Shown piece after piece: positions 2,720-26,869 of a stretch of 32,000 nucleotides of DNA. The notes under the pieces are model-generated. The model had not been told where the DNA came from, made no database searches, and saw only the letters and a list, made by a program, of their open reading frames with translations. Each line of letters opens with the position of its first letter. Positions within the stretch are counted from its first letter, which is position 1. Made by a program: the position numbers and the translations under genes. Source of the DNA: Casimicrobium huifangae (GTDB lineage: Bacteria; Pseudomonadota; Gammaproteobacteria; Burkholderiales; Casimicrobiaceae); the NCBI RefSeq assembly GCF_009746125.1, contig NZ_CP041352.1, forward strand, positions 367,847-399,846, written 5' to 3'.

Positions 2720-3304
2720 ATGATTTGCCGCATCCACCTGCGTCGCGCCGGCGGCGCCCTGTCAGCTCTGGTGTTCGGGCTGGTGATGGCTGCTACCGCC
2801 ACCGCCCAGAGCAGCGAAATGCCAACCGTCGATGAGATCGTCGGCAAACTCAATGCTGCCGCACAGGGTAGCGCGCAACCTGCCCGCAAGAAGACCCGCG
2901 GCATCAGCCTCGATGGCACTGCCAGCAGCGGCGTCGAACGCGTTGAAAAGATCAATTCGACCAGCTACAGCGAAACCCGTATCCAGTTCGAGTTCGGCTC
3001 TGATCGCCTGACCGAGCAATCGCGGAACGTGCTCGACGTTTTCGCCTCGGCAATCATGTCGCCATCGCTGCAATCGATGAAGTTCGTCATTGAAGGCCAC
3101 ACTGATGGCGTCGGCAGCGATCAGTACAACCTCGACCTTTCACGCAAGCGCGCCACGGCGGTGATGCGCTATCTCACCAGCACCCGCGGCATTCCTGCCA
3201 AACGGCTGTCGGCACGCGGCAAGGGCAAACGCGAGCTGGCCAATCCGGACGAACCGGCGTCGGCAGAAAACCGTCGCGTCGCCTGGGTGCCACTGCGGGG
3301 ATAG
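2720..3304 (+). CDS. OmpA-family (OmpA/MotB C-terminal peptidoglycan-binding domain) secreted protein
   Basis: Signal peptide: ALSALVFGLVMAATATAQS. OmpA_C motifs: KFVIEGHTDGVGSDQYNLDLSRKRATAVMRYL, AKRLSARGKGKRELANPD, AENRRV. A GGGGA RBS lies 5 nt upstream of the ATG. Confidence 0.85.
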   Translation: MICRIHLRRAGGALSALVFGLVMAATATAQSSEMPTVDEIVGKLNAAAQGSAQPARKKTRGISLDGTASSGVERVEKINSTSYSETRIQFEFGSDRLTEQSRNVLDVFASAIMSPSLQSMKFVIEGHTDGVGSDQYNLDLSRKRATAVMRYLTSTRGIPAKRLSARGKGKRELANPDEPASAENRRVAWVPLRG

Positions 3305-3388
3305 CAAGGCGGCGGCGAGCATCGCCGCCACCCGCCCGCTGGCCACGATCACCGTTGTCCGGCAACACAGTTTTTGAGGGGGAACACC

Positions 3389-11365: not shown

Positions 11366-11849
11366 TGTTGTCGACGCGGCTACGCGAAGCCGCATGATGG
11401 CAGGGATCAAGTCGCGCGACACAAAGCCCGAAGTGCTGGTTCGCCACGGCTTGCACGCGCGTGGCTTCCGGTATCGGTTGCAGTCGGGCGATCTGCCCGG
11501 CAAGCCTGATGTTGTCTTGCCGAAGTGGCGCACCGTTGTATTCGTGCACGGTTGCTTTTGGCATTGGCACGGGTGCGCATTGTCAAAACTACCGGGCAAC
11601 AATGCGGCTTTCTGGCTTAAGAAGCTTGACACCAATCGACATCGCGACGACTACGTGAAGCGTCAGCTTCTTGCCGAAGGTTGGCGCGTTGCGGTCGTGT
11701 GGGAATGCGCTACGCGTGGCGCGCGTGCAGCCGTTGCAGTACCCCGCGTACTCGACCAGCTCGCGCAGTGGATCCGCGCATCAGGTCGATCGAGGTTTTT
11801 CGAAATAGGCAACGCCACTGTTGCCCGGATGGAGACATCGCCGCGATGA
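11358..11849 (+). CDS. vsr: Very short patch repair endonuclease Vsr
   Basis: VVDVVDAATRSRMMAGIKSRDTKPE..LPGKPDVVLPKWRTVVFVHGCFWHWHGC...FWLKKLDTNRHRDDYVKRQLLAEGWRVAVVWECA aligns along its length with E. coli Vsr (MADVHDKATRSKNMRAI...FTHGCFWHHHHC...VWEC). The start is set at in-frame GTG 11358 by that alignment. Confidence 0.9.
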   Translation: MVDVVDAATRSRMMAGIKSRDTKPEVLVRHGLHARGFRYRLQSGDLPGKPDVVLPKWRTVVFVHGCFWHWHGCALSKLPGNNAAFWLKKLDTNRHRDDYVKRQLLAEGWRVAVVWECATRGARAAVAVPRVLDQLAQWIRASGRSRFFEIGNATVARMETSPR

Positions 11850-13414
11850 CGATTGATGTCATTGACCTGTTTGCAGGTCCGGGTGGTCTTGGCGAGGGGT
11901 TCGCTTCACTTGATGAGGGGCGCAGATTCAAGATTGCCGTCTCCGTTGAGATGGAGGCCAGCGCACATCAGACGTTGATGCTGAGAAGCTTCTACCGTCA
12001 TTCGCAAGGGGATCAGCGTGCACTTCAGGCGTACTACAACTATTGCAACCGCAGCGATGCTCCGCACCCTCGCGAGCTTCATCCAGCGCTCTGGCGTCAT
12101 GTCGAAGATGAAGCTCGTCAACTGACGCTCGGTGTAGAGCGGGACAACAACGTTCTGCGCCGGATTCTGGACGAGCGAAAACTTGATCCTGACAGAACGA
12201 TAGTGATTGGCGGACCACCTTGCCAGGCGTATTCGCTGGTTGGCCGTTCAAAGAATCAGGGCACCGCGGGTTATGTGGCCGAGGATGACCATCGCCATTT
12301 CCTCTACCGCGAATACCTGAAAATCCTGAATCACACACAGCCTGCCGCGTTCATCATGGAAAACGTGAAAGGCATACTGTCGTCAAAGGTCGGCGGGCGA
12401 CGAGTTTTTCACGACATCCTGCGCGACCTGTGTCACCCGGGGAGGGCTCTACGCCGTCCCATCGACGAACAGGGAAATGGCTATCGCATTTGTTCGCTGG
12501 TTTCACCCACGTTCTACGCGGAAGGTATGGACCCGTCCGCTATCAATGCCAGCGACTTTGTTATCAAGGCGGAAGAATATGGCGTGCCACAAGCTCGCCA
12601 CAGGGTAATTCTTCTTGGTATTCGCAACGACCTGGCGCACAAGGCGATCGACCTGTTGCGCACGCGTCCCCGAGTCTCGGTGCGCTCTGCGATCGCCTCG
12701 CTGCCGCCGCTGCGAAGCAGATTGAGCTCAGGTGATGATGCTGCAACGTGGAGTAGAACAGTCAAAGGCTTGGTGCTGGATCAGGCGAAAGATGCGGCGA
12801 GAAAGGGATTGGACGACCTGAGCAAGCACCTGACGGCCTGCCTTCATGGGATAAATGGCGGCTTGCCAACCGGCGCTCTACGTGTTGCATCGTATGTTCC
12901 GCCCGTTGCGCAGGACGACGTTGACAAATGGTCTTGTGACAGCCAGCTATCTGTCTGGTTGAACCATGAAGCGCGTTCGCACATGAAGTCGGATTTGGGG
13001 CGATATTTCTTTGCAGCCGCCTTCGGCGAGAAGTTTGGGAGATCACCGAAAGGTCACACAGACTTTTGTCTTGAGGGCCTGTCGCCCAACCACGCGAATT
13101 GGACGACCGGAAAGTTCGAGGACCGCTTCCGGGTGCAGTTGTACGACCTGCCTGCGACAACAGTTACCAGCCACATTGCCAAGGACGGGCACTACTTCAT
13201 TCATCCCGACCCGACGCAGTGCCGTAGTCTCACGGTTCGCGAGGCGGCCCGCCTGCAGACGTTTCCGGACAACTACTTTTTTCAGGGTAATCGGACACAG
13301 CAGTACCACCAAGTTGGCAATGCTGTGCCGCCTTTGCTTGCTCTCGGCATCGCGACGACGGCAGCCCGATTTCTAGCAAATCGCACTGCGGCTGGACGTG
13401 GGTATGTGGCCTGA
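11846..13414 (+). CDS. dcm: DNA (cytosine-5)-methyltransferase
   Basis: ATG 11846 overlaps the vsr TGA (ATGA). C5-MTase motifs: I VIDLFAGPGGLGEGF, IV GGPPCQAYS, VI FIMENVKG, VIII YGVPQARHRVILLG, IX REAARLQTFPDNYFF, X QVGNAVPPLLA. A long variable region lies between VIII and IX. The track ORF start at 11681 is an upstream extension inside vsr. Confidence 0.92.
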   Translation: MTIDVIDLFAGPGGLGEGFASLDEGRRFKIAVSVEMEASAHQTLMLRSFYRHSQGDQRALQAYYNYCNRSDAPHPRELHPALWRHVEDEARQLTLGVERDNNVLRRILDERKLDPDRTIVIGGPPCQAYSLVGRSKNQGTAGYVAEDDHRHFLYREYLKILNHTQPAAFIMENVKGILSSKVGGRRVFHDILRDLCHPGRALRRPIDEQGNGYRICSLVSPTFYAEGMDPSAINASDFVIKAEEYGVPQARHRVILLGIRNDLAHKAIDLLRTRPRVSVRSAIASLPPLRSRLSSGDDAATWSRTVKGLVLDQAKDAARKGLDDLSKHLTACLHGINGGLPTGALRVASYVPPVAQDDVDKWSCDSQLSVWLNHEARSHMKSDLGRYFFAAAFGEKFGRSPKGHTDFCLEGLSPNHANWTTGKFEDRFRVQLYDLPATTVTSHIAKDGHYFIHPDPTQCRSLTVREAARLQTFPDNYFFQGNRTQQYHQVGNAVPPLLALGIATTAARFLANRTAAGRGYVA

Positions 13415-13784: not shown

Positions 13785-15857
13785 TCACAAACCGATCTGA
13801 AATCCTGCCAATTCCAAGCGTTGACGAATCTGAAGAATCGCAAACGCTTGTCGTGAAGTTGGAATGCGCCCAGCTGAACCAGCCAGCATCAACAGTTGAT
13901 CTTCCTTGGGCGTCAGCTCGTTACTCTGGATGCCCCAATCGCGCAATTTGCGCCAATTTGATGCCTTGTAGTTCATTACTTCTGTAATTGCCGCAATGTC
14001 CGAATCGATGCGTGCAACCCCAATCGCATCTTCTTTGCGCTGCAATTCATCCGCCTCGGGTACTAGTTCTGCAGCAAATTCTGATATTAGTGAGATTCGC
14101 TGCTGATGGGCACGCTGCCATGCTAGCTCCTTCTTGCACCACTCGGTGACGTTCTCCAACCCCTGTTCGGGAGCGGTAATGACCGAATACATTGCGCGAG
14201 CGATAACCTTTAGCTGAGCGGAAAGCGCTGGAGAGATCGCTTGCGTGCGCCAGATGGACTGGACATTCAACGCGTTACCTGCGCCCTGTTCAGCAATCAT
14301 TTGCGCCAACTTTGCAATCGTGAAAGTGACGATGTTTGCGCGGTAACCTCCGTCATACCAGTCCGTTTCAGCGGGAATAAGCTGCTCCAACTCTCGGAAC
14401 ACGATGGTATGGCCCACCGATGACTTAAAGAACTCGTCGTTGAACTGCAGCGGCCTGCGCTGCCACTCTTCCACGACGAACTTGCTGTAGACGTCGAAGT
14501 TCTTCTGCGCACCTTTGCTGACTTCATGCGGCAACTGCCGCCACGAGTTCTCGATCTTTGCTAGGTCCGTTTTCGTGATGACCTGCCGCCTCGGATTATC
14601 GGACTCGAAACGAAGCTTCTCAGCGGGACTCATCTTCGATGTCTCAATGCGGTACTGACCTTTTGCGCGCTCGTAGAACCATGTTGTTGGCCTCTGCGAC
14701 CCGGGTCTTGGTGGAGCTTTGATCCGCCTGGACAGCTCCTCCATCTTGCGGTGAAAGGCGTGATTTGAGAAAAGGTCGGAATCAGAGACCTTGGTCTGCC
14801 GGTTCGCGTACTCAGAAATCTTGGGAATCAGGTCCGCTGACCTATCGGTATCGACAACGGACAGCTTCATCTGTACGAAGATCCCGTTGAGGTCTGCGCC
14901 ATCCTTTCGGCGCGCGAGAGCAAGGGATGCCGTGGTCTGCCCGCCGTTCACGATCTGAAGGTCCGTCGCAGCAAGAAGTCTCGGACCGCCTGGCGTGTCC
15001 TGTGTTTCAACCGACGTGGCCGTCGCGGCAATTCCGTTGTTAAAGGCAAAAAACATTTCCGGGCTCCGAAGGATCGTCTCCCGGATTGCCTTGTTCACCC
15101 TCACCGCTTTGCCGAGAAAACTTCTTACATTCCCCTCAAGAAGTCGGCTGCCGTATTCCTCGTACATGCGTGCCAAGGTCTCGCCGGGTAGCACGCAAAG
15201 GTAGCCGCTGTACTCTGACTGGTTGAGGCTCGCCTTGAGGCAGGGAATCCCGCCTTCGACTAGGCCGCCGAAGTCGACTGTTAATGCCTCGCGCCCGGAT
15301 CGCGACGAGAGTACATCATGAAAACGGACAATATCCCAAATGTGGAACTCGGCTGGAATTCCGTCAACGCTTTGCTCTGGCCAGTCGCGTATCCGATCGC
15401 TCAGGATGCCGTCGGTGGCCAAGTAAAAACGCAGCCTCGTGATGCTTGGTTTATGCGTCTGCAGGAGGGAAAAGAAGTCGGACGCAGGATGGTCATCTGC
15501 CGAGAGATGATCGTCGTTTCTCGCGAACGCTTCCTCGACGAAGGAAACAGGTTTGGAGAAGATCGCCTTTGCGATAGTTTGAGTCAGTGTGAATGGCTGC
15601 TTTTCGCCCCCGAACTCAGCGATGACGATTCGCAGGGATCCGTCTGCTTCGTCAAATGCATATCCGTCAATGCCGAGGCTTCGTCTCCTCGCCCCAAATC
15701 CGCGATACGGACAGGGCACGAAATCAATGAGCTCCTCCGCCTCCTCCAGCATTTGTCCAGCCACGGAACCGAAGCCGGCTTCGCGATCTCGTCCCCCAAA
15801 CACATCTGCAGCGCGGGCAATTACTTCATCGCGAAATGCCCCCAAGTACTCTTCCAT
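13785..15857 (-). CDS. AIPR (abortive infection phage resistance) family protein
   Basis: 690 aa. The N-terminal layout is typical of AIPR proteins (IDGYAFDEADGSLRIVIAEF..TLTQT..AIF; IPAEFHIWDIVRFH). The central region has the FNNGIAATA and IVNGGQTT motifs. Convergent with dcm and divergent from the five-gene operon. Confidence 0.75.
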   Translation of the reverse strand: MEEYLGAFRDEVIARAADVFGGRDREAGFGSVAGQMLEEAEELIDFVPCPYRGFGARRRSLGIDGYAFDEADGSLRIVIAEFGGEKQPFTLTQTIAKAIFSKPVSFVEEAFARNDDHLSADDHPASDFFSLLQTHKPSITRLRFYLATDGILSDRIRDWPEQSVDGIPAEFHIWDIVRFHDVLSSRSGREALTVDFGGLVEGGIPCLKASLNQSEYSGYLCVLPGETLARMYEEYGSRLLEGNVRSFLGKAVRVNKAIRETILRSPEMFFAFNNGIAATATSVETQDTPGGPRLLAATDLQIVNGGQTTASLALARRKDGADLNGIFVQMKLSVVDTDRSADLIPKISEYANRQTKVSDSDLFSNHAFHRKMEELSRRIKAPPRPGSQRPTTWFYERAKGQYRIETSKMSPAEKLRFESDNPRRQVITKTDLAKIENSWRQLPHEVSKGAQKNFDVYSKFVVEEWQRRPLQFNDEFFKSSVGHTIVFRELEQLIPAETDWYDGGYRANIVTFTIAKLAQMIAEQGAGNALNVQSIWRTQAISPALSAQLKVIARAMYSVITAPEQGLENVTEWCKKELAWQRAHQQRISLISEFAAELVPEADELQRKEDAIGVARIDSDIAAITEVMNYKASNWRKLRDWGIQSNELTPKEDQLLMLAGSAGRIPTSRQAFAILQIRQRLELAGFQIGL

Positions 15858-15972
15858 TCAGAATGCCCCCAAAATGACCCTAAGCTCAGAGCCTGTTCGT
15901 CACAATTGAAAATCAGAATTCTCAAAAGTCTCGAGTCAATCATAATTCGATCCACTATAAAAATAGGGAGGA

Positions 15973-16995
15973 GTGGCTGGACCTGTGCTCATTGATGTCG
16001 ACGAAATATTGATCGCGCTACGGCGCAGCGACTTGGCTCTAGTAACCGGTGGCAAGTCGATTGCACCTCCTCCATGGGTCGATTGGCTTGTGTGGCTTGG
16101 TCAGTGGATGCGAGTCCAGGCTGAGCTTGAAGGCCGACGGATAGCGGTCGTTAGATTACCAAGTAGAAGGCTCGCCGCCGCGTTCGTTGCTATCGGTTCT
16201 GTCTTCGCATCTGCACGACTTCATGACGAATCGCTCGACTGGGATGGTTTACGGAGCCTCGCTCCCGGAACGAAGGTATTCTGGCGAGAATCTGCATCTG
16301 GCAAGACCGTGCGCCGGGCGGGGATCGCGGTCGGCGTAAGCCAGATTGACGGTGGTGACTTCTTGGAAGTCACTGTCGACACCCAAAGGAGAACTCAGCA
16401 AGGAAAGCGCTTTTTCGCCAAATCTGCGGCGTTGTCCTACGGGATAACCCTCGGAGCGGTTAGCGCGGTTGCCGATGAGCGACTGGCCTGTGCAGAGCGC
16501 TGTATCAACGCGGCATTGACGGATGCTCCTCAGGGTTGGATTCGGTCGCCGGCCGTCGAGTGCAACATCATCACCGAGCGAGCCTCATTTCTGGGTGATA
16601 TTGAGAACCTCGTCATCCGCGTTGCCGGAACAGTGGGCGCGGCATGCTCTGATGTTCTGGCCATAGCCGACTCCGGCGGGCGATCACATGGCAAGACAAG
16701 ATTGGCTTCAGCGCGAAGCGATGGGGTGCTCGACGAGTCGGGCTTCGTCACGATTCTTGACGGCGCGGCCGCAGCACTTCGCTTGAAGGACTCCATCGCA
16801 CGCAGCGTCGTGGTCCTGCTTGACCAGGCCGAGTACGACGAAGAGGTCGAGCAACTGCTTCTGACTTTCTTGGGCTATTCAGTCGATGCTGGCATCGACC
16901 CACCCTCGAGCGGAGTCATGGCGCTGCCGGAGAGTGTCGAGTGCTTCATCTTCGGTCTGCCTCTAGAGTCTCAGTCAAACTATGAAGCGCACTAA
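15973..16995 (+). CDS. Hypothetical protein (340 aa), gene 1 of the five-gene DrmAB-containing operon
   Basis: Long ORF on the same strand as the following four genes. GGGAGGAG RBS at 15966-15973. The start is GTG 15973 or in-frame GTG 15985, which has better RBS spacing. I recognise no motif. Confidence 0.6.
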   Translation: MAGPVLIDVDEILIALRRSDLALVTGGKSIAPPPWVDWLVWLGQWMRVQAELEGRRIAVVRLPSRRLAAAFVAIGSVFASARLHDESLDWDGLRSLAPGTKVFWRESASGKTVRRAGIAVGVSQIDGGDFLEVTVDTQRRTQQGKRFFAKSAALSYGITLGAVSAVADERLACAERCINAALTDAPQGWIRSPAVECNIITERASFLGDIENLVIRVAGTVGAACSDVLAIADSGGRSHGKTRLASARSDGVLDESGFVTILDGAAAALRLKDSIARSVVVLLDQAEYDEEVEQLLLTFLGYSVDAGIDPPSSGVMALPESVECFIFGLPLESQSNYEAH

Positions 16996-18655
16996 GAAAG
17001 CCACTAACGGCCAATTGATTCGTCCGACCATGGGTGCGTCTGACATGCTGGCTGCGACAGGGCCAACCGAGTCGATCCTAGAGCTCGTGGCTACTCACCA
17101 TGTAAACGCAACCAGATGCCAAACGGCAAGAGTAGTGATCGACTTCCCGCCGATGCGAGAAGTTATGCGGGCGTGCTCATCGATTTTTGCTGAAATTGAT
17201 CGAGAGGATCCCCTGCAACGCGCGATCTCGCGAGACGTGTGGCTTGTGAAGTCGTCGCTAATGCTGACCGCTCTACCATTCAATGATTCGCGCCTAGGCC
17301 TAGACGAATTGCTGAATAGACTAGCTACCGCCACCGAAAGCGTTCCGGCAATCCGATCTCCAGTCAGGGCTTTGACTGGCTTTGCACAACACCTAGCCTC
17401 AGAGCGGTTCAATCCAAAGCGAGAGCGCTTGATGGAATTGCTGCAAACTTCAAAGCTTGGCGGCCGTCCTGTTGGACTTCTCGCAAATATTTGCGGGTCT
17501 CCGACCCCAGGCTGGCCAATCTCATTAGAGGTGGAAAGCGACTTCGGCGCCTCAGAGTTGGACCTCATTCGACGAAGACGACAGGTGAAGAGTTCGCTTT
17601 ACGAGCTATTAGTTATTCCGGGCAATCCGTGGTTCGCTTCCAGAGGCCTTCTGTTCGATCTGCTCTATGGCGGAAGAACTTCGGAGGTCGTCGTCGTTGC
17701 GTATCGATCAGAACCGGTTTCTTTGCCGATCCCTAGCGAAATGCCGAGAGATCGCTATTTCCCACCAACCCGACGCCAGCCGAAGCAAACTGTCGGGGAG
17801 AGCGAGCAGGGCGACAGCGCTCAGCTAGACAAATGGGCTAACGAGTCATTCTGGTCATCGATTCACGCCCAGCAGGCTGACATTACTCCGACCTCGGACA
17901 GAGACGTCACCACGGACGCCCAGTTCGTATTGTTTGCCGATGGGAGCGGCGCATTCCTCCCGGCAGATGGACGCGTTGTCGAGGTATCGGAGCTGTTTGA
18001 GACGGGAGCAAATTTCGACGTCACGGAAGACAAGCTTCCCCGGGTATCGGTCAGGGACCTTGAGGAAGGTGATCTTGTAATGCTCAGGCTTTCGGGTAGC
18101 GGAAACTACCTCGACGATGTTGCGGACTCGCTCATTCAGCGAGCCGGTGAAAATGCTCTGCGCCATCGTGCGCTGGAGTGGAAGGATATGCTCCACGATG
18201 TGATTAATCGCCAAGGCGAGGGCGTAGTGGCGATGAAGCTGCGAAGCCTTGGCGTCAGACTCCGGTCCCCCCAGTATCTTTGGGTTTGGGCGGGTGACGC
18301 TGTCATGGCGCCCCACGACCGACAGACGTTTCACAGTTTGATCACAACCATCTGGCAACTGGGGCGCCACACTGGCGACGGTGAGCCGGAAGCCTACGCC
18401 AACGCGCGATGGGACGACATGGAGCGCCTTAAGGCGTACCATCATAAGGCTGGTGTCGAAATTCGCGCTGCGCTGCTAACCCGAGTGCGGGGCTTGGTTG
18501 CCGAGCGCCGCCGCATCGACACGATGGAATCGATCGAACTGCCGGGGGTAGCAGCCGGTCGGATGGGCCTTCTACGCGTGGCGGCAGTCGACACAAAGAC
18601 TAGAAGGGTGTCGGTGTCTAGGCTGTTTCATCTGGGAAAGGTGAAGGCGGCGTAG
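16982..18655 (+). CDS. Hypothetical protein (557 aa), gene 2 of the operon
   Basis: ATG 16982 overlaps the end of gene 1 by 14 nt. The stop TAG 18653-18655 overlaps the next start by 1 nt. No recognisable catalytic motif. Confidence 0.6.
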   Translation: MKRTKKATNGQLIRPTMGASDMLAATGPTESILELVATHHVNATRCQTARVVIDFPPMREVMRACSSIFAEIDREDPLQRAISRDVWLVKSSLMLTALPFNDSRLGLDELLNRLATATESVPAIRSPVRALTGFAQHLASERFNPKRERLMELLQTSKLGGRPVGLLANICGSPTPGWPISLEVESDFGASELDLIRRRRQVKSSLYELLVIPGNPWFASRGLLFDLLYGGRTSEVVVVAYRSEPVSLPIPSEMPRDRYFPPTRRQPKQTVGESEQGDSAQLDKWANESFWSSIHAQQADITPTSDRDVTTDAQFVLFADGSGAFLPADGRVVEVSELFETGANFDVTEDKLPRVSVRDLEEGDLVMLRLSGSGNYLDDVADSLIQRAGENALRHRALEWKDMLHDVINRQGEGVVAMKLRSLGVRLRSPQYLWVWAGDAVMAPHDRQTFHSLITTIWQLGRHTGDGEPEAYANARWDDMERLKAYHHKAGVEIRAALLTRVRGLVAERRRIDTMESIELPGVAAGRMGLLRVAAVDTKTRRVSVSRLFHLGKVKAA

Positions 18656-20436
18656 TGGCCAGGATGATCCCGCCTCTAGTAGCAGGCGATGCGCCCAAGG
18701 GCGAAAGGCAGTTGTTCGCCAAGCTGCGTGACGATCCCAAGACAGGGGACTGGCTGGTACTTCATTCCTTCGACATACGCCGACACGTTGCGCGGGCCGA
18801 AGGCGAGGCGGACATGCTAATCGTGGTTCCAGGCCAAGGCGTGCTCTGCGTCGAGGTCAAGGGATGCTGCGTAGTTCGAGAGGGCGGGCTCTGGAAGTAC
18901 TCCTACGACCCACCCAGGACGTCCACGGTGGGCCCGTTTCGCCAGGCTAGTCAGGCCGGACACTCCATCCGGCAATACCTTGCGCAGAAGGATTCATCGC
19001 TTGGATCGCTGTTGTTCCACTCGGCAGTTCTCTTCACCGAAGTGGACTTCACCGAAAAGTCCCTTGAGTGGGAGCCGTGGCAGGTCATCGGGCGTAGCGA
19101 CTTCGTGCGGCAGCCCATCTCCACGACCGTGACCCGCGTGCTGGAGGCGGCGCACTCCCAGTGCCGCTCTAGAAAGCCGGTGCCAGCCTGGTACGGAAGT
19201 CATAGTCGGCCATCTGTTCGGCAGCTGGACTCCATCCTCAGACTGTTGCGTCCGGACTTCGAATACGTGGTTTCCGGACGAAACGACGTGGAGCTTGCCG
19301 AAGCTGCAGTACGCAAGTTCACGGAAGAGCAGTTCGAGGCGCTCGATCATCTCGAGGACAACCACCGGGTGGTGTTCAAGGGACCCGCCGGAACTGGCAA
19401 GACGTTCCTCGCAATGGAGGCAGCCCGAAGGGCTGTGCGTGACGGGCAAAGCGTGGCGCTCCTGTGCTTCAACAGCCTTCTCGCAGCATGGCTGAAGCAC
19501 GAGACCGCAGTGATTGCGCAGGAAGCGCAGGCGCGATCGCTGCCCTTCTACGTCGGCAGCCTCTCCGGGCTCATGCGCAGCGTTGCAGACATCGACGTTC
19601 CGCCAGAGCCCGACAGCAAATTCTGGGAGGCTGAACTTCCCATGCGGGCGGTGGATGCCCTGCTGGCCGACGGGCGCGGCACGCCGAGCTTCGATCTGCT
19701 GCTTGTTGACGAGGCGCAGGACCTACTGTCTGACGCGTATCTCGACGTCATGGAACTTCTGTTGGGCGGTGGTCTGGCAAGCGGCCGCTGGGCGCTGTTC
19801 GGCGACTTCGAACGGCAGGCGATCTACGCGGACAAGGGTGCAGCTCTGGGACTCGAAAGGCTCCGGAGCCGGACCGCGGACAGCGTTTCAACGTACCGCT
19901 TGCGAGTCAACTGCAGGAACGCAGTCAGGATCGCGGAAGCGGTCACCATTACCAGCGGACTATCCCCTGGATACAGCAGGGTTCTCAACGATGCGGAATC
20001 AGCGGACGTTGAACCTGTCTTCTACCGCAGCGCTTCCCATCAAGGAGAACTGCTGCTGGCGACCATCGCCAGACTCCTCACATCCTTTGCTCCGTCGGAG
20101 ATAGTCGTGCTCTCCATGCGAGCCGACGCATCGTCGTGCGTCGCCCGGCTGGCACGTGAACAGGCCGGCTGGCACTTTGCTTCCTGTCGCGAAGAGGCGG
20201 AGGACGGAGTCTCGATACGGTACGCCAGCGTCCATGCGTTCAAGGGGCTGGAGGCTCCGGCCGTCGTGCTGACGGACATTGATGGCATCGGCGACGAGCA
20301 GGCCAAGTCCCTTCTCTACGTGGGCATGTCCCGTGCACGGGTCAGGCTGCACATCCAGATGAACGAGCGACTTCGTTCGAGCTATGACGCGATGCTGACG
20401 GTCGGCTTGAAGGCAGCGCTTGGGAGGTCTACCTGA
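18655..20436 (+). CDS. NERD-domain nuclease-like / SF1 (UvrD-like, AAA) helicase fusion protein (Nhi-like architecture)
   Basis: N-terminal NERD pattern: GERQLFAKLRDD...WLVLHSFDI...EGEADMLIVVPGQGVLCVEVKG. Walker A VVFKGPAGTGKTF (19381-19404). Walker B LLLVDEAQDL (about 19699-19725). C-terminal UvrD_C-like segment: SVHAFKGLEAPAVVLTDI...LLYVGMSRARVRLHI. An alternative ATG start is at 18664. Confidence 0.8.
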   Translation: MARMIPPLVAGDAPKGERQLFAKLRDDPKTGDWLVLHSFDIRRHVARAEGEADMLIVVPGQGVLCVEVKGCCVVREGGLWKYSYDPPRTSTVGPFRQASQAGHSIRQYLAQKDSSLGSLLFHSAVLFTEVDFTEKSLEWEPWQVIGRSDFVRQPISTTVTRVLEAAHSQCRSRKPVPAWYGSHSRPSVRQLDSILRLLRPDFEYVVSGRNDVELAEAAVRKFTEEQFEALDHLEDNHRVVFKGPAGTGKTFLAMEAARRAVRDGQSVALLCFNSLLAAWLKHETAVIAQEAQARSLPFYVGSLSGLMRSVADIDVPPEPDSKFWEAELPMRAVDALLADGRGTPSFDLLLVDEAQDLLSDAYLDVMELLLGGGLASGRWALFGDFERQAIYADKGAALGLERLRSRTADSVSTYRLRVNCRNAVRIAEAVTITSGLSPGYSRVLNDAESADVEPVFYRSASHQGELLLATIARLLTSFAPSEIVVLSMRADASSCVARLAREQAGWHFASCREEAEDGVSIRYASVHAFKGLEAPAVVLTDIDGIGDEQAKSLLYVGMSRARVRLHIQMNERLRSSYDAMLTVGLKAALGRST

Positions 20437-23400
20437 TGTCGCCCCTCGACAAGAACCTAGCGAACAGAGAGCAGATGCTCGCGCGACTGCGAGCGGAGAT
20501 TGTCGGTCCGGATCCGGCGGGGAAGCCGGTATCACTTGGCGACAAGCAGGCCATGACCTGGGAGGAGTACCGGATCCCGCAGATGCAGGCGGACGGGCAG
20601 GAGATCGTCTGGCAGGACCCGCCGACGAAGCGATTCGGTGCTGGCATCTTGTTTCCGCTGGGCGCCACCGAAGAGGCGATCGTCAACGCGACCGAGGCGG
20701 ACGAGGTGGTCCCGCTCACTTCACCCGATCTCGCGCCGCCTGGACAGCAGCCGGATGAAGAACTTGCGGCGAGGGAAAGGGCGCCATCGTATGGTGGACC
20801 TGCCGATGACGCAGAGGAAGAGGACGTCACACTCGCCAACGCCTTTCGCCCGTCCGCCATCGGACTCAGCTTCCTGGCCGATCTTGCAGCAGAAACCAAC
20901 GGGATCGTCGTCGAATTGGTCAACGTCGGACGCATAGGTCTGGAGCGAACCGTCGAAAGTCCTTGCGGCTCGTACCTCCCGTTGACTCTCCATCTTGGAG
21001 GGGCGGTCGGTAAGCAGCCGACGCCACGCAAGGTGTGGCTGCGCAAGCCGGTACTTGATGACCAGGGCAAGGTGCCTGCGGTTTCCATCGCCGCCAAAGA
21101 GCTGCTCAACGCCGCCAAGCCCCTGCGGCACCCGATCGGACCTGCCGCCCTTGGTCTGGAACTTGTCGTAGTCTCGCGGACTTGGCGTTCGGCTCCAACC
21201 AGTGGGCATCGGCTCCTGACCGTGTCCGTCGCGAACAAGAAGAGGGCCAAGGAGACGGAACTTGATTCCCTGTGTCTGTTCCAGGCTGGAATCCGGGTCA
21301 GCGGTGCGAGCGGAAATCAGTGGATCGACGCGTATCCCGAGAACTTGATCGCGGATTTCCAGGACGATGATCCGCTTGCAGACGAGAACGTCAATCGTGT
21401 ACTGTACAGGGAGAACCGGACCTTTGCCATCGGTCATGGATGTGGCGCCGACTGGATCAGTGGCCGCCCGCAACGTGTGACGACGGTGTGGTCGGATGTC
21501 CTCCCGGTATTCGAGACGCCAGCTACAAGCGCAGATCTGCAGATCAAGGGCCCCGGAGGCCGATCGCAGTCCCTGCGCGTCAGCATGCGTCTGCTGGCGG
21601 GCCTTCAGCCAGGTGATGACGGGCTTGGCGACGTCGACCGGTTGCTGCAGGAATACGAGGGCTGGATTGCTGCGCTTGACTCGAAGGTTGCCACCATTGC
21701 CGAAGGGTACCGGCCGACAGCGACTGAACTGATCAGGAAGTGTCGCGAGTGCGCTGCTCGGATTGCGGACGGGCTTTCGATCTTGCGACAGGCTGGCGCT
21801 CAAGGCGATGTGGCACGCAAGGCGTTCAGACTTGCAAACCACGCCATGCTGGTTGCGCAACTCCGGTCACGGCAGGAGCTGCGAGTGCCAGATCGCGACG
21901 CAAACAGCCGGCTGACGTGGTCCCGCCCGATCGCGGTGGTCGATCCCGCGGTTCCCAACGAGAGACAGGGCTTCTGGAGACCATTTCAGATTGCCTTCCT
22001 CCTCATGTCACTGCGGGGCATCTGCGACTCGAGCCATCCGGACCGGAAGGTGGTGGATCTCATCTGGTTCCCGACAGGTGGTGGCAAGACCGAGGCGTAC
22101 CTCGGTCTGACGGCGTTCACCGTCTTCTTCAACGCGCTGTCGGGGACTGCCAATGGGGGCGTCGATGTCCTCATGCGATACACGCTGAGGCTGCTCACTG
22201 CCCAGCAGTTCCAGCGCGCAGCAACGCTGTTCTGCGCAATGGAACAGCTGCGTCGCTGGGACGTGGTGGCTCTTGGCAATCGGCCGTTCCGGATCGGCCT
22301 GTGGGTAGGCAGCGCGGCCACGCCGAACAAGCGTGACGATGCCGTGGAGAAGCTGAAGGCGCTGCAGCGGGACTCCGACGCCGAGAATCCCTATGTGCTT
22401 CTCAGGTGCCCATGGTGCGCGGCGAAGTTCGGACCGCATGAGGCAGCCTCATCGCCCGTTCAGCGAAAGGCAGGCCGCGGCCGCCAATCCTCGGGCGGAC
22501 ACGTCTACGGTTATGCAAGGGAGAGAGGACCGTCGGGAGACACCGTCGTCTTCAGATGCGGAGATCCCGGGTGCGAGTTCGGCGGCATGCCCGGTCCGGG
22601 AACGCCCCCACTCCCGATCGTGGTCATCGACGAGGATCTTCTCGATGCTCCGCCCAATCTGCTGATCGGGACCGTCGACAAGTTCGCGATGCTTGCGTGG
22701 ACTCCTGCGGCGCGCAGCATCTTCGGACTGGATGACTCGGGTCGCCATCGCGGCGCACCGCCAACGCTGGTCATCCAGGACGAGCTGCACCTCATCTCCG
22801 GGCCGCTCGGCTCGATGGTTGGCGCCTACGAAACCGTCATCGAGGCGCTGTGTGTCGATCCTCTCGGGGGGATGGTCCTGCCGAAGATCGTTGCATCGAC
22901 GGCGACCATCAGCCGGGCGCGTGAGCAGATCGCAGGGCTCTACGCGCGTTCAGGGGTCATGCTGTTCCCGCCTTCGGGCCTCGATGCAGCCGATTCCTTC
23001 TTCGCACGCGAAGCGGTCGACGACGATGGCAGACCCAAGCCAGGTCGGCTCTATGCCGGGGTGCTGGCACCCGCGCATACGTCGCTTCAGACTTCAGAAG
23101 CGCGGGTGTTCGCCACGTTGATGCAGCATGCTTCCCTGCTCGAGGGAGAGCCACGAGAACTGGATCCATGGTGGACATTACTCGTGTTCTTTAACTCCCT
23201 GAGAGAGCTCGGCGGCGCCGCAACGCTGTTCACTGCAGACACGCGCGAATACCTCAAGGTCATCCTGAATCGCCACGGTATCGACTACGGCAGGATCCGC
23301 CAGCTCTTCCATGTCGAAGAGCTGACCAGCCGGATCCGAGGAGACCACATCCCGCGCCTGCTGGAGCGACTCGAGGTCCCTGTCACGGTCCGGGAGGGAG

Positions 23401-24119
23401 CCGGCGCCGCTATACCCAGTCCGGCGCCTATCGACGCCTGCCTTGCGTCGAACATCATCGAGGTCGGAGTGGACGTCCCGCGTCTTTCGCTGATGGCGAT
23501 CGTCGGACAGCCCAAGACCACGTCCCAGTACATCCAGGTCTCGAGCCGGGTTGGCCGGGACCTGGACAAGCCAGGTTTGGTGGTGGTGATCTACGGTCAG
23601 ACGAAGCCCAGGGACCGCAGCCACTACGAGAGGTTCCGCTCGTACCACCAGCGCCTGTATGCGCAAGTCGAACCGACCAGCGTCACCCCGTTCAGCCCAC
23701 CAGCAGTCGATCGTGCTCTCCACGGTCTCGTTGTGGCACTGGTACGACAACTGGGACGCAGAGGCCATGAGGCGGATACGCCCGACCCGTTCCCGCTGAC
23801 TGCTGGCAGCGACCTGCGGCTGAAGGTCGAGGAAGTGATCCGTGATCGAGTGCGTTCCATTGCGCCCGATGAGGAGGCTTCCGTGATGGCCAAGCTCAAG
23901 CTCAGGCTCGATCAGTGGAGCGCCCGGAAGCCGGCCGAATACGGTGATTTCTCGAAGACGCCAGAGCACCCGCCGCTGATGCATCCTGCCGGGCGAACCG
24001 AGCTTGCGCAGTGGGAGGGTCGCAGCTGGGCAACAATGTCGTCCCTCCGCAATGTCGACGCGAGTTGCGAGGCGGATCTCACGGCTCAGTACAACAACAT
24101 TCCCGAGGCAAACCAATGA
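20436..24119 (+). CDS. DrmA-like SF2 DExH helicase (DISARM-type large helicase)
   Basis: ATG 20436 overlaps the upstream TGA by 1 nt. Motif I WFPTGGGKTEAYLGL (22074-22091 encodes TGGGKT). Motif II VIQDELHLISGP (DELH at 22779-22790). Motif III ASTAT. Motifs V/VI NIIEVGVDVPRLSLMAIVGQPKTTSQYIQVSSRVGR. Long N-terminal region of about 540 aa. C-terminal SLRNVD. Followed by a separate DUF1998 gene, as in DISARM. Confidence 0.8.
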   Translation: MSPLDKNLANREQMLARLRAEIVGPDPAGKPVSLGDKQAMTWEEYRIPQMQADGQEIVWQDPPTKRFGAGILFPLGATEEAIVNATEADEVVPLTSPDLAPPGQQPDEELAARERAPSYGGPADDAEEEDVTLANAFRPSAIGLSFLADLAAETNGIVVELVNVGRIGLERTVESPCGSYLPLTLHLGGAVGKQPTPRKVWLRKPVLDDQGKVPAVSIAAKELLNAAKPLRHPIGPAALGLELVVVSRTWRSAPTSGHRLLTVSVANKKRAKETELDSLCLFQAGIRVSGASGNQWIDAYPENLIADFQDDDPLADENVNRVLYRENRTFAIGHGCGADWISGRPQRVTTVWSDVLPVFETPATSADLQIKGPGGRSQSLRVSMRLLAGLQPGDDGLGDVDRLLQEYEGWIAALDSKVATIAEGYRPTATELIRKCRECAARIADGLSILRQAGAQGDVARKAFRLANHAMLVAQLRSRQELRVPDRDANSRLTWSRPIAVVDPAVPNERQGFWRPFQIAFLLMSLRGICDSSHPDRKVVDLIWFPTGGGKTEAYLGLTAFTVFFNALSGTANGGVDVLMRYTLRLLTAQQFQRAATLFCAMEQLRRWDVVALGNRPFRIGLWVGSAATPNKRDDAVEKLKALQRDSDAENPYVLLRCPWCAAKFGPHEAASSPVQRKAGRGRQSSGGHVYGYARERGPSGDTVVFRCGDPGCEFGGMPGPGTPPLPIVVIDEDLLDAPPNLLIGTVDKFAMLAWTPAARSIFGLDDSGRHRGAPPTLVIQDELHLISGPLGSMVGAYETVIEALCVDPLGGMVLPKIVASTATISRAREQIAGLYARSGVMLFPPSGLDAADSFFAREAVDDDGRPKPGRLYAGVLAPAHTSLQTSEARVFATLMQHASLLEGEPRELDPWWTLLVFFNSLRELGGAATLFTADTREYLKVILNRHGIDYGRIRQLFHVEELTSRIRGDHIPRLLERLEVPVTVREGAGAAIPSPAPIDACLASNIIEVGVDVPRLSLMAIVGQPKTTSQYIQVSSRVGRDLDKPGLVVVIYGQTKPRDRSHYERFRSYHQRLYAQVEPTSVTPFSPPAVDRALHGLVVALVRQLGRRGHEADTPDPFPLTAGSDLRLKVEEVIRDRVRSIAPDEEASVMAKLKLRLDQWSARKPAEYGDFSKTPEHPPLMHPAGRTELAQWEGRSWATMSSLRNVDASCEADLTAQYNNIPEANQ

Positions 24120-26239
24120 GCCGCCCTGTCAGACGGTCGCAGGCCGTGTCCCCCTTCGGTGTGGGCGCGCTTGTGGACTTCCCCGGTCCGGTGTCCCTGA
24201 TCCATGCCGGACTCGACGCGTGGCCTTTCGACGAGAGGAACCCGGCTCACCGCGAGTTCAGAGTTGACGATGAGCCGAGGCTTGCCAGGCGGCTCGGGGT
24301 CGACTTCTTCGTGCAGCCTCCAGACTTCAGGCAGGTCGAGAGAGGAGGCTCAGGAGAGGCAGTCAACCTTGGACTGAAGCTACCCTTCCTTCGCTTTCCA
24401 CTGTGGCACTCATGCCCTCGCTGCGGTCGAATGTACGAGGCTAAGTACCACCATCGGTCTCCGCCGGAGTGTGAGGGGCCTATCGGAAGCGGAGCAGAGA
24501 AGGGCAAGGCGCACAAGAAGCGGCGCGCCATACAAGTCCGTTTCGTCGCCGTATGTCGATCTGGCCATCTTCGTGACTTTCCCTGGATCGAGTGGCTACG
24601 TCTCGATCGAGCTGACTGGGATGGCGTCAGGACTGACCGCTGGCTTCGCCTGTTGTCCACGGGATCTGCATCAATTGCCGGCGTCGTTGTCGTTGCAGAA
24701 CGGCGCGACAGTTCCGGAGTCGTCGAGGTCGCGCGCGAGTCCCTCGCCGGTGCGTTCAGTGTCGAATCGAGCGGTGCCACAGCCTTCACCACCATCATCA
24801 AGCTGACATGCGACGGCCAGAACCCAGCGATTGGCCTCGGCGACGGCGGCGACGTTCCGATCGAGCCTTGCGGTCAGGACCTGAGGGCCGTGCTTCGTGG
24901 CGCGAGCAACCTCTACTTCGCCGACGTCCGGAGCTCGATTTACGTCCCGGAAGTGGAGGACAGCGGACTGCCTCAGGCCGTGCTGGATCTGCTCGAGGAT
25001 TACGCACTGAGGCAGGAACTGTTGGGTGGAGCATTGGCATCGGAGACCGATGGAACCCTGAGTGTCAGGGCAGCGGGTGCGACTCTCCGTCGCCGCTATC
25101 CGGAGTCGGATGTCAGGGCAGAGGTTCTTGCGGCAGCAGTCAACAAGCACGCGCTGCACGAGATACTGACTCAACCACGACTCATCGCTACGACCCTGGT
25201 CCAGAAGGCGAAGACCGCAGTCGACGGAAAGGTCTCGGCGGAGATCCTCAAGGGTCTGATCGAGACTGCGCAGCCGGACTGGCTGATCGACCCGAATGTA
25301 CTGGTGGAACCGGTGAATGCGTGGCTCAGGCGTCGCGAGGGTCTGGAGGCCGAGGGCGCACCGCAGCGCACGGAGGACGTCTCCGACAGGACCTACCGCG
25401 CAGAGGAATACCGCGCATTCAGTCGCGATGGTCAGGATGGGCTGCCGAAGGTCAATCTGCTCGTACGGAGCAAGCCACTCGATCGCTACAGTGATCTCGT
25501 CAGGAGGAACTTCTCGCGCGTGGCCCTGTTGGACAAGTTGCGCGAAACACGTGCCTTCGTCGGATTCAGCAGGATCTATGCAAGCTCGAACACCCCCCCG
25601 GCGCAACGCTGGAAGCTCATTTCAAGATCTCAGCAGAACTGGCTTCCAGCCGTCGTCGTCCGTGGCGAGGGCATCTTCCTAATGTTCAATCAAGAGCGCC
25701 TGGCGCAGTGGACCAGAGAGTTCGGCGAGGTGCACAAGGATCGGCTGCGTCAGGTCAATCTCAATCTACAGGCCCAGGCGCGCCGACGTCAGGTGCATGC
25801 CGATGACGCCTCGCCCGCCCTCGTGCTGCTGCACACCTTCGCGCACGTGTTGATTAGCCAGCTCGTGTTCGACTGTGGTTACGGCTCTTCGTCTCTGAGG
25901 GAGCGGATTTACTTCTCCGAGACGCATCCGCAGATGACCGGTGTGCTGATCTATACCGCCGCTGGGGATTCCGAAGGAACCATGGGCGGCCTTGTCAGGA
26001 TGGGCGAACCGGGTCAGCTCGATCGAATTATCGCCAGGGCGCTCGACCGAGCCCGGTGGTGCTCAAGCGACCCCGTGTGCATCGAGAGTGCTGGACAAGG
26101 GCCTGACAACTGCAATCTCGCGGCCTGCCATTCATGTGCCCTACTGCCGGAAACCTCTTGCGAGATGCAGAACCAGCTGCTTGATAGGGGCATGCTGGTC
26201 GGGGTACTGGACCGCCCGGAGATTGGTTTCTTCTCATGA
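24116..26239 (+). CDS. DrmB-like DUF1998 (MrfA-type Zn-binding) protein
   Basis: ATG 24116 overlaps the drmA-like TGA (ATGA); the track start at 24011 is an in-frame extension. N-terminus RRSQAVSPFGVGALVDFPG. Zn ribbon CPRCGRMY...PPECEG. FVAVCRSGHLRDFPWIEWL. C-terminal DUF1998 signature: LLHTFAHVLISQL...YTAAGDSEGTMGGLV...WCSSDPVCIES...CNLAACHSCALLPETSCEMQNQLLDR. Confidence 0.85.
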   Translation: MSRPVRRSQAVSPFGVGALVDFPGPVSLIHAGLDAWPFDERNPAHREFRVDDEPRLARRLGVDFFVQPPDFRQVERGGSGEAVNLGLKLPFLRFPLWHSCPRCGRMYEAKYHHRSPPECEGPIGSGAEKGKAHKKRRAIQVRFVAVCRSGHLRDFPWIEWLRLDRADWDGVRTDRWLRLLSTGSASIAGVVVVAERRDSSGVVEVARESLAGAFSVESSGATAFTTIIKLTCDGQNPAIGLGDGGDVPIEPCGQDLRAVLRGASNLYFADVRSSIYVPEVEDSGLPQAVLDLLEDYALRQELLGGALASETDGTLSVRAAGATLRRRYPESDVRAEVLAAAVNKHALHEILTQPRLIATTLVQKAKTAVDGKVSAEILKGLIETAQPDWLIDPNVLVEPVNAWLRRREGLEAEGAPQRTEDVSDRTYRAEEYRAFSRDGQDGLPKVNLLVRSKPLDRYSDLVRRNFSRVALLDKLRETRAFVGFSRIYASSNTPPAQRWKLISRSQQNWLPAVVVRGEGIFLMFNQERLAQWTREFGEVHKDRLRQVNLNLQAQARRRQVHADDASPALVLLHTFAHVLISQLVFDCGYGSSSLRERIYFSETHPQMTGVLIYTAAGDSEGTMGGLVRMGEPGQLDRIIARALDRARWCSSDPVCIESAGQGPDNCNLAACHSCALLPETSCEMQNQLLDRGMLVGVLDRPEIGFFS

Positions 26240-26446: not shown

Positions 26447-26869
26447 TCAAGTAAGCCATTTCATCGCAAGCGCCGCCAGCTCCATAACCTCAATGTCGCG
26501 ATAAGGGTTCAGCACCAGCAGGTCGTCGTCGCTTGAGATGATCGCGCTGGCGTTCGCTGCCAGCGCGAGCGCAAGGAACTTGTTGTCCCTGCTGTCGCGG
26601 CAATCGTTCACCGTTTCGGTGACGGCGACCATCTGAACCACGCCAGCGTAGCGGCGGACAAATTCGGCGCGGTCGGCCGCTGCGCGGTAGCGGTCGAACT
26701 TTGGCCGGGAGAGAACCTCGACCAATTCCTGCATTGTGTCGGTGGACGCTACCGCCTGATGGCGAGCGATGGCATCGCGAAATGCCTGTGCGTGCGCGGA
26801 CTGCGGATAGAGCAGCACGCCGACGAGCGTGCTGGTGTCGAATACGATGCGTTTAAGCGCGGAGCTCAT
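26447..26869 (-). CDS. PIN-domain toxin (type II TA, TIGR00305-like)
   Basis: IVFDTSTLVGVLL...MQELVEVLSRPKF...CRDSRDNKFLALALAANASAIISSDDDLL. Acidic PIN residues are present. Overlaps the upstream antitoxin gene by 17 nt. Confidence 0.8.
   Translation of the reverse strand: MSSALKRIVFDTSTLVGVLLYPQSAHAQAFRDAIARHQAVASTDTMQELVEVLSRPKFDRYRAAADRAEFVRRYAGVVQMVAVTETVNDCRDSRDNKFLALALAANASAIISSDDDLLVLNPYRDIEVMELAALAMKWLT

Follow-up and report, generated by a model that had tools for sequence, protein, structure and literature searches.

Two adjacent genes, referred to here as A and B, open an operon on the forward strand of the window (the whole stretch of 32,000 nucleotides that was analysed). The genes and features of the locus, in window coordinates, are as follows.

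11681..13414, + strand: C5 cytosine DNA methyltransferase, DrmMII-like self-marking enzyme (PF00145, TIGR00675)
13785..15857, - strand: AIPR family protein, divergent from the operon (PF10592, AIPR_N)
15858..15984, + strand: AT-rich intergenic region between the divergent genes; promoter-like site at 15919-15946, GGGAGG Shine-Dalgarno sequence at 15966-15971
15973..16995, + strand: protein A, 340 aa from GTG 15973; 336 aa from GTG 15985 more likely
16982..18655, + strand: protein B, 557 aa, ATG start
18655..20436, + strand: NERD nuclease domain-UvrD-like SF1 helicase fusion (Pfam, PADLOC, translation motifs)
20436..24119, + strand: DrmA, short class-2-type YprA-family SF2 helicase (PADLOC, NF038325)
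24116..26239, + strand: DrmB, DUF1998/MZB zinc-binding partner of DrmA (NF038324, Pfam MZB)

An earlier note had described two ORFs of 340 and 557 aa with a 14-nt overlap, coupled to the helicases downstream, and both statements hold: the ORF coordinates give the same A/B overlap, the stop TAG of B has one base in common with GTG 18655 of the NERD-helicase, the NERD-helicase/DrmA junction reads TGATG, and DrmA and DrmB overlap by ATGA (DrmB probably starts at ATG 24116, giving 707 aa). A, B, the NERD-helicase, DrmA and DrmB are thus tightly coupled, with every junction from A through to DrmB overlapping. The same note had spoken of long ORFs in a high-GC genome; the ORFs are real, but the genes of the A-B operon sit in a lower-GC island (54-60% GC, against 63-74% GC in the surroundings). 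Translation of A probably starts at GTG 15985, judging from the alignment of homologue N-termini to V5 of A, the 336-aa length of its relative P0121 (99% identical) and the position of the Shine-Dalgarno sequence. Promoter-like matches in the region scanned were no more numerous than expected from shuffles, so the site at 15919-15946 is suggestive by its position only.

The class 2 DISARM hallmarks present in the window are a C5 methyltransferase and a short-type DrmA. The methyltransferase (PF00145, E 5e-45) qualifies as the DrmMII of class 2; DrmA (PADLOC, E 5.8e-207) qualifies as a class 2 DrmA, scoring 854 bits on NF038325 (DrmAS), a little short of the equivalog cut-off (950); and DrmB is identified by NF038324 (392.5 bits; cut-off 240) and the PADLOC DrmB model (E 2.6e-69). 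The DrmC of class 2 was not found: no cassette gene gave a DrmC/PLD match, and the HxK(x)4D motif is absent from every ORF of at least 80 aa in all frames of the window (the same scan recovered it in the annotated drmC genes of loci L010 and L012). The NERD-helicase matches Pfam NERD (6.3e-10), UvrD_C_2 and AAA_30, as well as RTasNERD-Hel and NERD+UvrD in PADLOC, and its translation contains GPAGTGKT and VDEAQD motifs; its NERD domain is of the PD-(D/E)xK type, and this NERD-SF1 helicase is a candidate nuclease effector. The AIPR protein (PF10592, E 5.5e-96) does not qualify as the MzaE of Mza, since it scores 310 bits on a model whose cut-off, at 1050, is far higher; we regard it as a conserved accessory and a candidate effector.

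For protein A no match was found in Pfam, PADLOC, NCBIfam or PDB sequences. It has 101-126 homologues. A-like proteins are called 'hypothetical' throughout the databases, while some B-like ones are named DrmE. The AF2 model of A (pLDDT 91, pTM 0.89) predicts an alpha/beta domain, into which an SH3/Tudor/WYL-like beta-barrel is inserted, and a disordered tail; its Foldseek matches are weak. The string 'ALVTGGKS' was considered as a Walker A motif and rejected, as it is not conserved in homologues.

For protein B we found 120 homologues, and 830 matches at E<=1e-3 when cluster representatives (50% clustering) were searched; the identical 557-aa sequence is present in public assemblies. Its match to PF24957 (DrmE_C) is faint (E 0.0017, 18.5 bits, below the Pfam cut-off of 27), and the same region is matched in 38 of the 68 close and 38 of the 68 distant B relatives (best E 1.5e-11), rising above that cut-off in the relative P0354 (44.8 bits) and in the Nostoc B (28.2 bits). 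B itself matches neither the PADLOC nor the NCBIfam DrmE models; residues 355-448 of P0354 align to positions 661-755 of the PADLOC DrmE model (PDLC02635, 790 positions), and Bacillus and Nostoc B-like proteins carry the names 'DrmE family' or 'DrmE domain-containing' in NCBI and UniRef. The AF2 model of B (pLDDT 79.6) comprises an N-terminal alpha/beta and helical region, DrmE_C at about residues 320-500 and a C-terminal beta-hairpin, with residues 1-29 predicted to be disordered; Foldseek returned weak matches to RIG-I-like/Hef helicases. Judged by its C-terminal domain, B is most likely a short-form DrmE-family protein. The earlier note had seen no recognisable domains in either protein and had named similarity to DrmE as contrary evidence. 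Its description remains accurate for A, which stays without a family assignment, whereas B carries a divergent DrmE_C domain, sub-threshold in B and above threshold in relatives, and to that extent the similarity to DrmE was found.

In every locus with sequence upstream of B, a homologue of A lies before it, and DrmA-DrmB follows B (L013 and L024 start at B and are uninformative on A). The A-before-B order spans Burkholderiales, Syntrophobacteraceae, Nostoc, Bacillus and metagenomic contigs. Many relatives have a NERD-helicase between B and DrmA; AIPR adjoins A in all Burkholderiales loci and is co-directional in L032 and L059; and related loci carry a C5-methyltransferase homologue at either the one or the other cassette end. 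Elsewhere, the genes upstream of drmA include UvrD/GajB-like and type III Res-like helicases, and the other plasmid DrmA loci that we examined are class 1.

Some relatives fill the slot upstream of drmA with a single chain of 853-906 aa (L059/L034, L047, L033 and L056). Locus L059 encodes a C5-methyltransferase, an AIPR protein, an 853-aa protein, a NERD-helicase, DrmA and DrmB, which is the architecture of the window, except that a single gene stands in for A and B. Residues 320-808 of this 853-aa protein align to positions 5-475 of the profile of distant B relatives (E 6e-39), leaving an A-sized N-terminus ahead of the B-matching part. Long forms in turn match the PADLOC DrmE model collinearly, over residues 419-830 of the 853-aa L034 protein (positions 354-765, E 5.8e-6) and residues 627-801 of the 862-aa L056 protein (positions 563-732, E 2.8e-11); the link from B to the full-length DrmE model is transitive, through the distant-B profile. 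Overall, the C-terminal ~530 aa of the long forms are homologous to B, and the N-terminal ~320-380 aa have the size of A and resemble it weakly. When the A profile was compared by hhalign with these N-termini of long DrmE-like proteins, it aligned over 252 collinear columns at P 0.002 with a probability of only 14%; the score of 31.9 compares with 14.1 when the alignment is reversed and with 11.6±1.4 (max 14.8) when its columns are shuffled (40 shuffles), and VVRLPSR ~ IFVFPD and SLAPGTKV ~ SLTPGDKV are motifs common to both. No fused form occurs among the 150 closest of B's representatives, whose lengths (104-611 aa) are too short to include an A-like half, and metagenome and viral scans with the long-form proteins returned the queries themselves only. 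An 801-aa L. plantarum protein encoded between a C5 methyltransferase and DrmA (L011) was tried as a canonical DrmE and rejected; it has no Pfam or PADLOC DrmE match and no similarity to A or B, and is therefore unusable as a reference.

We consider it moderately probable that DrmE is split here into two polypeptides, A corresponding to the N-terminal ~320 residues of the single-chain DrmE-like proteins and B carrying the C-terminal region of DrmE, so that in place of the single ~790-aa polypeptide of DrmE there are two overlapping genes (336-340 and 557 aa). A appears best explained as the detached N-terminal DrmE module, and the predicted disorder of the tail of A and of the first 29 residues of B is as expected of a former linker. 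The principal competitor, possible if rather unlikely, takes B alone as a short DrmE and A as an unrelated, independently evolved accessory (e.g. a specificity or regulatory subunit) that occupies the slot before B, the long forms then having a different N-terminal domain. That no A-like sequence matches the PADLOC DrmE model or any other DrmE model, that the hhalign probability is low and that the A-like proteins have remained 'hypothetical' beside neighbours named DrmE are all to be expected under it; against it, the collinear alignment lies far above its shuffled and reversed controls, the two motifs recur, L059 is otherwise identical in architecture to the window, and sizes and junction agree, because B begins where residue 320 of the long form aligns. 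It is very improbable that A and B instead belong to a separate AIPR and C5-methyltransferase (Mza-like, RM-like) module that merely abuts a DrmAB cassette. The AIPR gene and A do share a divergent promoter region, and an AIPR with a Dcm-type methyltransferase (accompanied by Vsr in L001) resembles known AIPR-methylase modules, but A-B-DrmA-DrmB occurs with no AIPR or C5-methyltransferase match in L031, Nostoc L005 and Bacillus L007-L009, in L003 the methyltransferase lies on one side of the operon and AIPR on the other, and the overlapping junctions run unbroken from A to DrmB. High-GC DNA does hold many long, spurious, overlapping ORFs; the idea that A and B are chance open frames or pseudogenes is nevertheless already refuted by the conservation data, with hundreds of full-length homologues down to 17-25% identity across phyla in kept synteny, and the confident AF2 models of both also count against it. 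The pseudogene or non-conservation outcome that the earlier note had set against its own proposal was accordingly not what we found, and its view of A and B as coupled, expressed-looking components of a DrmAB-based defence operon is borne out, both being conserved (>100 homologues each, overlapping junctions, A-B-DrmA-DrmB order kept).

A, B or both could be catalytic effectors of the system, for example a novel nuclease replacing DrmC, and we rate this as quite improbable. In its favour are the lack of a PLD gene in the cassette, the residues D263 and E323 of A, which are nearly invariant across phyla and lie at or near beta-strand ends, and the essentiality of drmE (known for the B. paralicheniformis gene only) beside the dispensability of drmC in class 2 DISARM, as cited in 10.1101/2021.12.28.474362. 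Conservation across the wider families is, by contrast, confined to about 10 positions in A and about 6 in B, mostly W, P, G or L; neither protein has a PD-(D/E)xK, HNH, PLD or Walker motif, neither model has a nuclease fold match in Foldseek, and the operon already encodes a NERD nuclease-helicase. Nor do A and the N-terminal part of B qualify as SF1/SF2 helicases or RecA-like NTPases: they contain no conserved NTPase or helicase motif, hhalign comparison of their profiles with those of four helicases (Res-like, UvrD-like, DrmD and the NERD-helicase) yielded nothing, and the best Foldseek matches of the models are Mfd (E 1.7e-3) and LGP2 (6e-3), with TM <= 0.28. Profile searches of PDB sequences with alignments A1, A2, A3 and A5 gave no match. 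Of the roles suggested in the earlier note, sensor or specificity subunit is a reasonable guess, whereas the near-absence of conserved polar residues in A and B makes effector less likely.

Under the split-DrmE reading, A and B would be made in coupled fashion and then assembled into one adaptor, probably non-enzymatic and DNA-binding, which would bind nucleic acid with no NTPase or nuclease motif of its own and work with the DrmA-DrmB translocase. Such an adaptor would recruit the nucleases of the system once invading DNA without the C5-methyl mark has been recognised; in place of the PLD nuclease DrmC, these nucleases may be the NERD-SF1 helicase and possibly AIPR. A bolder version, which we hold only tentatively and think unlikely, makes A·B a heterodimeric 'pseudo-helicase' sensor, with a degenerate RecA-like lobe in each half, an SH3/WYL-like ssDNA-binding barrel in A and DrmE_C in B, that would sense DNA ends or the state of methylation and allow DrmAB and the NERD nuclease-helicase to act. 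If this were true, the class 1 helicase DrmD would have an inactivated counterpart in DrmE, and this would explain why class 2 DISARM cannot do without drmE but can do without drmC.

The system is best read as an undescribed class-2-like DISARM variant with no DrmC and with a NERD-helicase and AIPR instead; full-text literature searches found no paper describing this subtype, and those of its loci that were examined lack DrmC and often have a NERD-SF1 helicase and AIPR. It would delineate a widespread subtype, given the 830 B-matching representatives, in which A and this B are currently annotated as 'hypothetical'. With B most likely in the DrmE family and A as the putative N-terminal module, the pair would thus be a split known DISARM component and not wholly new proteins. 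A split DrmE would present an essential, mechanistically uncharacterised class 2 component in two modules with a conserved junction, as two smaller proteins that can be separately expressed, mutated and tested for binding, with a confident model of the N-terminal module at hand.

Among known systems, class 1 DISARM offers DrmD, an SNF2 helicase; like A-B, it and the other helicases upstream of drmA (UvrD/GajB-like, type III Res-like) take the accessory position beside DrmAB. Foldseek matched the A and B models weakly to helicase cores, but A and B have neither ATPase motifs nor profile-level similarity to these helicases, and any relation would be at most structural. The AIPR protein and C5 methyltransferase of the window resemble MzaE of Mza and the Dcm-Vsr-AIPR modules. 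The DrmE of class 2 DISARM (Bacillus paralicheniformis type) has in common with B the C-terminal end and the DrmE_C domain, sub-threshold in B, is likewise encoded upstream of drmA-drmB in association with a C5 methyltransferase, and is of similar size (~790-900 aa, against ~840-900 aa for A and B combined); the window differs in having two genes, a B too divergent for the Pfam, PADLOC and NCBIfam thresholds, a NERD-helicase gene between B and drmA, and no DrmC. The long DrmE-like proteins of 853-906 aa take the same operon slot as A and B in one polypeptide; the L056 locus, unlike the window, keeps a PLD (DrmC-like) gene after DrmB, and L059 encodes the six functions of the window in unchanged order.

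The two open reading frames that head the operon, which the earlier note had given as 340 aa and 557 aa with a 14-nt overlap (A and B here), were both found as described, overlap included, and their coupling to the downstream helicases held throughout, as the junctions from B through the three genes that follow it (NERD-helicase, DrmA and DrmB) all overlap:

15973-16995, + strand: A, ORF of 340 aa, GTG start
16982-18655, + strand: B, ORF of 557 aa, ATG start
18655-20436, + strand: NERD plus UvrD-like SF1 helicase, third operon gene, overlapping junction
20436-24119, + strand: DrmA, TGATG junction with the NERD-helicase

A probably starts at GTG 15985 (336 aa), because the N-termini of its homologues align to V5 of the 340-aa form, its homologue P0121 (99% identity) has 336 aa, and GGGAGG lies ahead at 15966-15971. 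The mechanical DrmB ORF opens at GTG 24011 (742 aa; 109-nt overlap with DrmA, 24011-24119); from the ATGA overlap with the DrmA stop at ATG 24116, which gives 707 aa (homologues, 705-706 aa), we place the start probably there rather than at 24011. The GC content of the cassette island is 54-60%, against a surrounding background of 63-74%, and a tRNA-Lys (UUU) gene at 2237-2312, ~8 kb upstream of the GC drop (which starts at ~10 kb), is a possible integration landmark. Elsewhere in the window, a PIN-domain (VapC-like) toxin gene lies directly downstream of DrmB (26447-26869, - strand), and at 3374-9444 the genes for a 1277-aa RCC1-repeat/BACON/DUF11 protein and a 746-aa caspase-like (Peptidase_C14) protein with a rhodanese domain share 4 nt, an unusual pair that could form a separate conflict or signalling module.

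A and B are real genes. A 5.8-billion-protein index holds 101-126 homologues of A and 120 of B, unnamed or 'hypothetical' throughout, the named ones mostly from Burkholderiales; an exhaustive search with the B-family profile returned 830 cluster representatives at E<=1e-3 (401 at E<=1e-10), and among the 150 matches listed full-length representatives are mostly ~480-560 aa. One public protein in the same cluster as B is from the betaproteobacterium Casimicrobium huifangae. AlphaFold2 modelled A with pLDDT 91 and pTM 0.89, and B with pLDDT 79.6 and pTM 0.70. Across phyla, only W35, P63, L96 and L229 of A are invariant (G43, G75, G99 and D263 near-invariant), and in B W400 is kept, with P145, L404, G424, W436, A490 and G491 near-invariant. 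So few conserved positions argue against catalysis, and the effector role that had been suggested for either protein loses ground with it.

The earlier description of both proteins as lacking recognisable domains stands for A, which had no match in Pfam, PADLOC, NCBIfam or PDB sequences (single-sequence and member-by-member scans), and fails for B. The sole match of B was sub-threshold, to Pfam PF24957 (DrmE_C; residues 348-454, E 0.0017, 18.5 bits, cut-off 27); the signal recurs in 38 of 68 close relatives and in 38 of 68 distant ones (best E 1.5e-11), and exceeds Pfam's threshold in the B-like protein P0354 (44.8 bits) and a Nostoc homologue (28.2 bits), with nearly the whole domain covered. 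It is thus systematic. Residues 355-448 of P0354 match positions 661-755 of the 790-position PADLOC DrmE model, which makes the C-termini of B-like proteins and DrmE collinear all the way. In NCBI and UniRef, the B-like proteins of Bacillus (507 aa) and Nostoc (520 aa) already go by 'DrmE family protein' or 'DrmE domain-containing protein', and every A-like protein by 'hypothetical'.

We annotated 13 loci with profiles from the window's own genes (L014-L022, Burkholderiales loci from a genome scan; the Comamonas pair L001/L002; L003/L004) and found C5-MTase, AIPR, A, B, NERD-helicase, DrmA and DrmB wherever the contig was long enough, the MTase at either end. A Syntrophobacteraceae locus (L023) lacks only AIPR. 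Around distant B homologues (17-30% identity) the order is A-B-NERD-helicase-DrmA (L029), A-B-DrmA-DrmB (L030, L031) or the full set (L032), the upstream genes being A homologues (E 4e-56 to 3e-11). On a Nostoc HK-01 plasmid, an IS element separates A (hhalign 96.9%, E 1.5e-10) from B, and DrmA and DrmB follow. Bacillus and Priestia plasmids encode a protein of 326-330 aa, then a B-like one of 507-510 aa, DrmA and DrmB; in Bacillus, the 326-330-aa protein is a distant homologue of A (hhalign 87%, E 3.7e-6, 295 columns). A-B is therefore kept beside DrmA-DrmB across relatives (the earlier note had named a lack of such conservation as a refutation), and A-B-DrmA-DrmB is the invariant core, often joined by NERD-helicase, AIPR and C5 MTase. 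A motif scan, which did pick up the annotated drmC genes that served as positive controls, found no PLD (DrmC) gene in the window or the scanned A-B loci.

Several of these loci have further neighbours. TniQ/TnsD (Tn7-like) genes adjoin the Comamonas cassette (L001/L002, 19930-21596) and a TnpB/Cas12f-like gene lies close to that of L031 (4924-6807), which points to mobile elements as carriers. In L003/L004, the stretch just ahead of the AIPR gene (3063-5823) encodes a further, unrelated NERD-UvrD helicase, followed by a WYL/WCX regulator, and may be an adjacent defence module. In L020, from a Rubrivivax MAG, the genes for AIPR, A, B and DrmA all come in several ORFs, through either decay of this copy or long-read assembly frameshifts.

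A DrmA-alignment scan of viral-collection contigs revealed proteins of 853-906 aa, each a single chain encoded immediately before drmA, with matches to the B profile. The most telling fused counterpart is L034, complete on contig L059, which has the window's architecture with one gene replacing A and B (C5-MTase, AIPR, 853-aa protein, NERD-helicase, DrmA, DrmB, co-directional). Residues 320-808 of this protein match positions 5-475 of a distant-B profile (E 6e-39), and residues 419-830 match positions 354-765 of the PADLOC DrmE model collinearly (E 5.8e-6). The L056 protein (862 aa; DrmE model, E 2.8e-11) precedes DrmA, DrmB and a 180-aa HKD-motif ORF, as in canonical class 2 DISARM. Each long form has an A-sized N-terminal stretch (~320-380 aa); against an alignment of these four N-termini, the A profile gave hhalign P 0.002, probability 14% and 252 collinear columns (score 31.9; 40 column shuffles gave 11.6 ± 1.4 with a maximum of 14.8, and the reversed alignment scored 14.1), with common motifs (VVRLPSR ~ IFVFPD, SLAPGTKV ~ SLTPGDKV). 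Predicted disorder in the first 29 residues of B and the tail of A is consistent with a former linker. Taken as a pair, A and B are most likely a split DrmE.

The slot directly upstream of drmA differs in occupant between viral-collection loci (L033-L058): in some a long DrmE-like protein, in others a UvrD/GajB-like helicase extended by ~200 aa at its N-terminus, a type III Res-like helicase or DrmD. DrmAB seems to take a second helicase-like partner in modular fashion, and since bona fide helicases otherwise fill the slot, a degenerate-helicase origin of DrmE is attractive but unproven. An 801-aa protein that takes the DrmE position on an L. plantarum plasmid (L011, 3826-6231), between C5 MTase and DrmA-DrmB, shows no detectable resemblance to A, B or the DrmE models and may be one more protein that fills this slot. 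Of the profile and fold comparisons proposed earlier, the former returned DrmE_C for B and were negative for A and B with real helicases; the latter gave weak likenesses. The A model consists of an alpha/beta domain into which a small beta-barrel is inserted; the barrel resembles CarD/Mfd Tudor-like, PafBC WYL and SH3-like barrels (E 1e-3 to 1e-1). For the N-terminal half of B the likeness, a weak one, is to the helicase cores of RIG-I-like proteins, Dicer and Hef (E 6e-3 to 5e-2; probability up to 0.99, TM <= 0.28). We treat these predicted likenesses as hints only. From them and the conservation pattern, we propose that A and B could act as a non-enzymatic DNA-binding adaptor, which would couple self/non-self discrimination to DrmAB and to the candidate effectors NERD-helicase and AIPR.

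In class 2 DISARM, according to 10.1101/2021.12.28.474362 (citing Ofir 2018), none of drmA, drmB and drmE can be spared, drmC is dispensable, and it is deleterious to lose the C5 methylase; what DrmE does relative to DrmAB is expressly called an open question (PMC9142583). A 2025 survey of the YprA family speaks of 'many uncharacterized DISARM-like classes'; DrmE and AIPR are absent from its text, and NERD appears only for the unrelated TALON system. Full-text searches brought up no description of this DISARM subtype or of the A family. Compared with known DISARM, this cassette is without DrmC, has its DrmE split and adds a NERD-helicase and AIPR.
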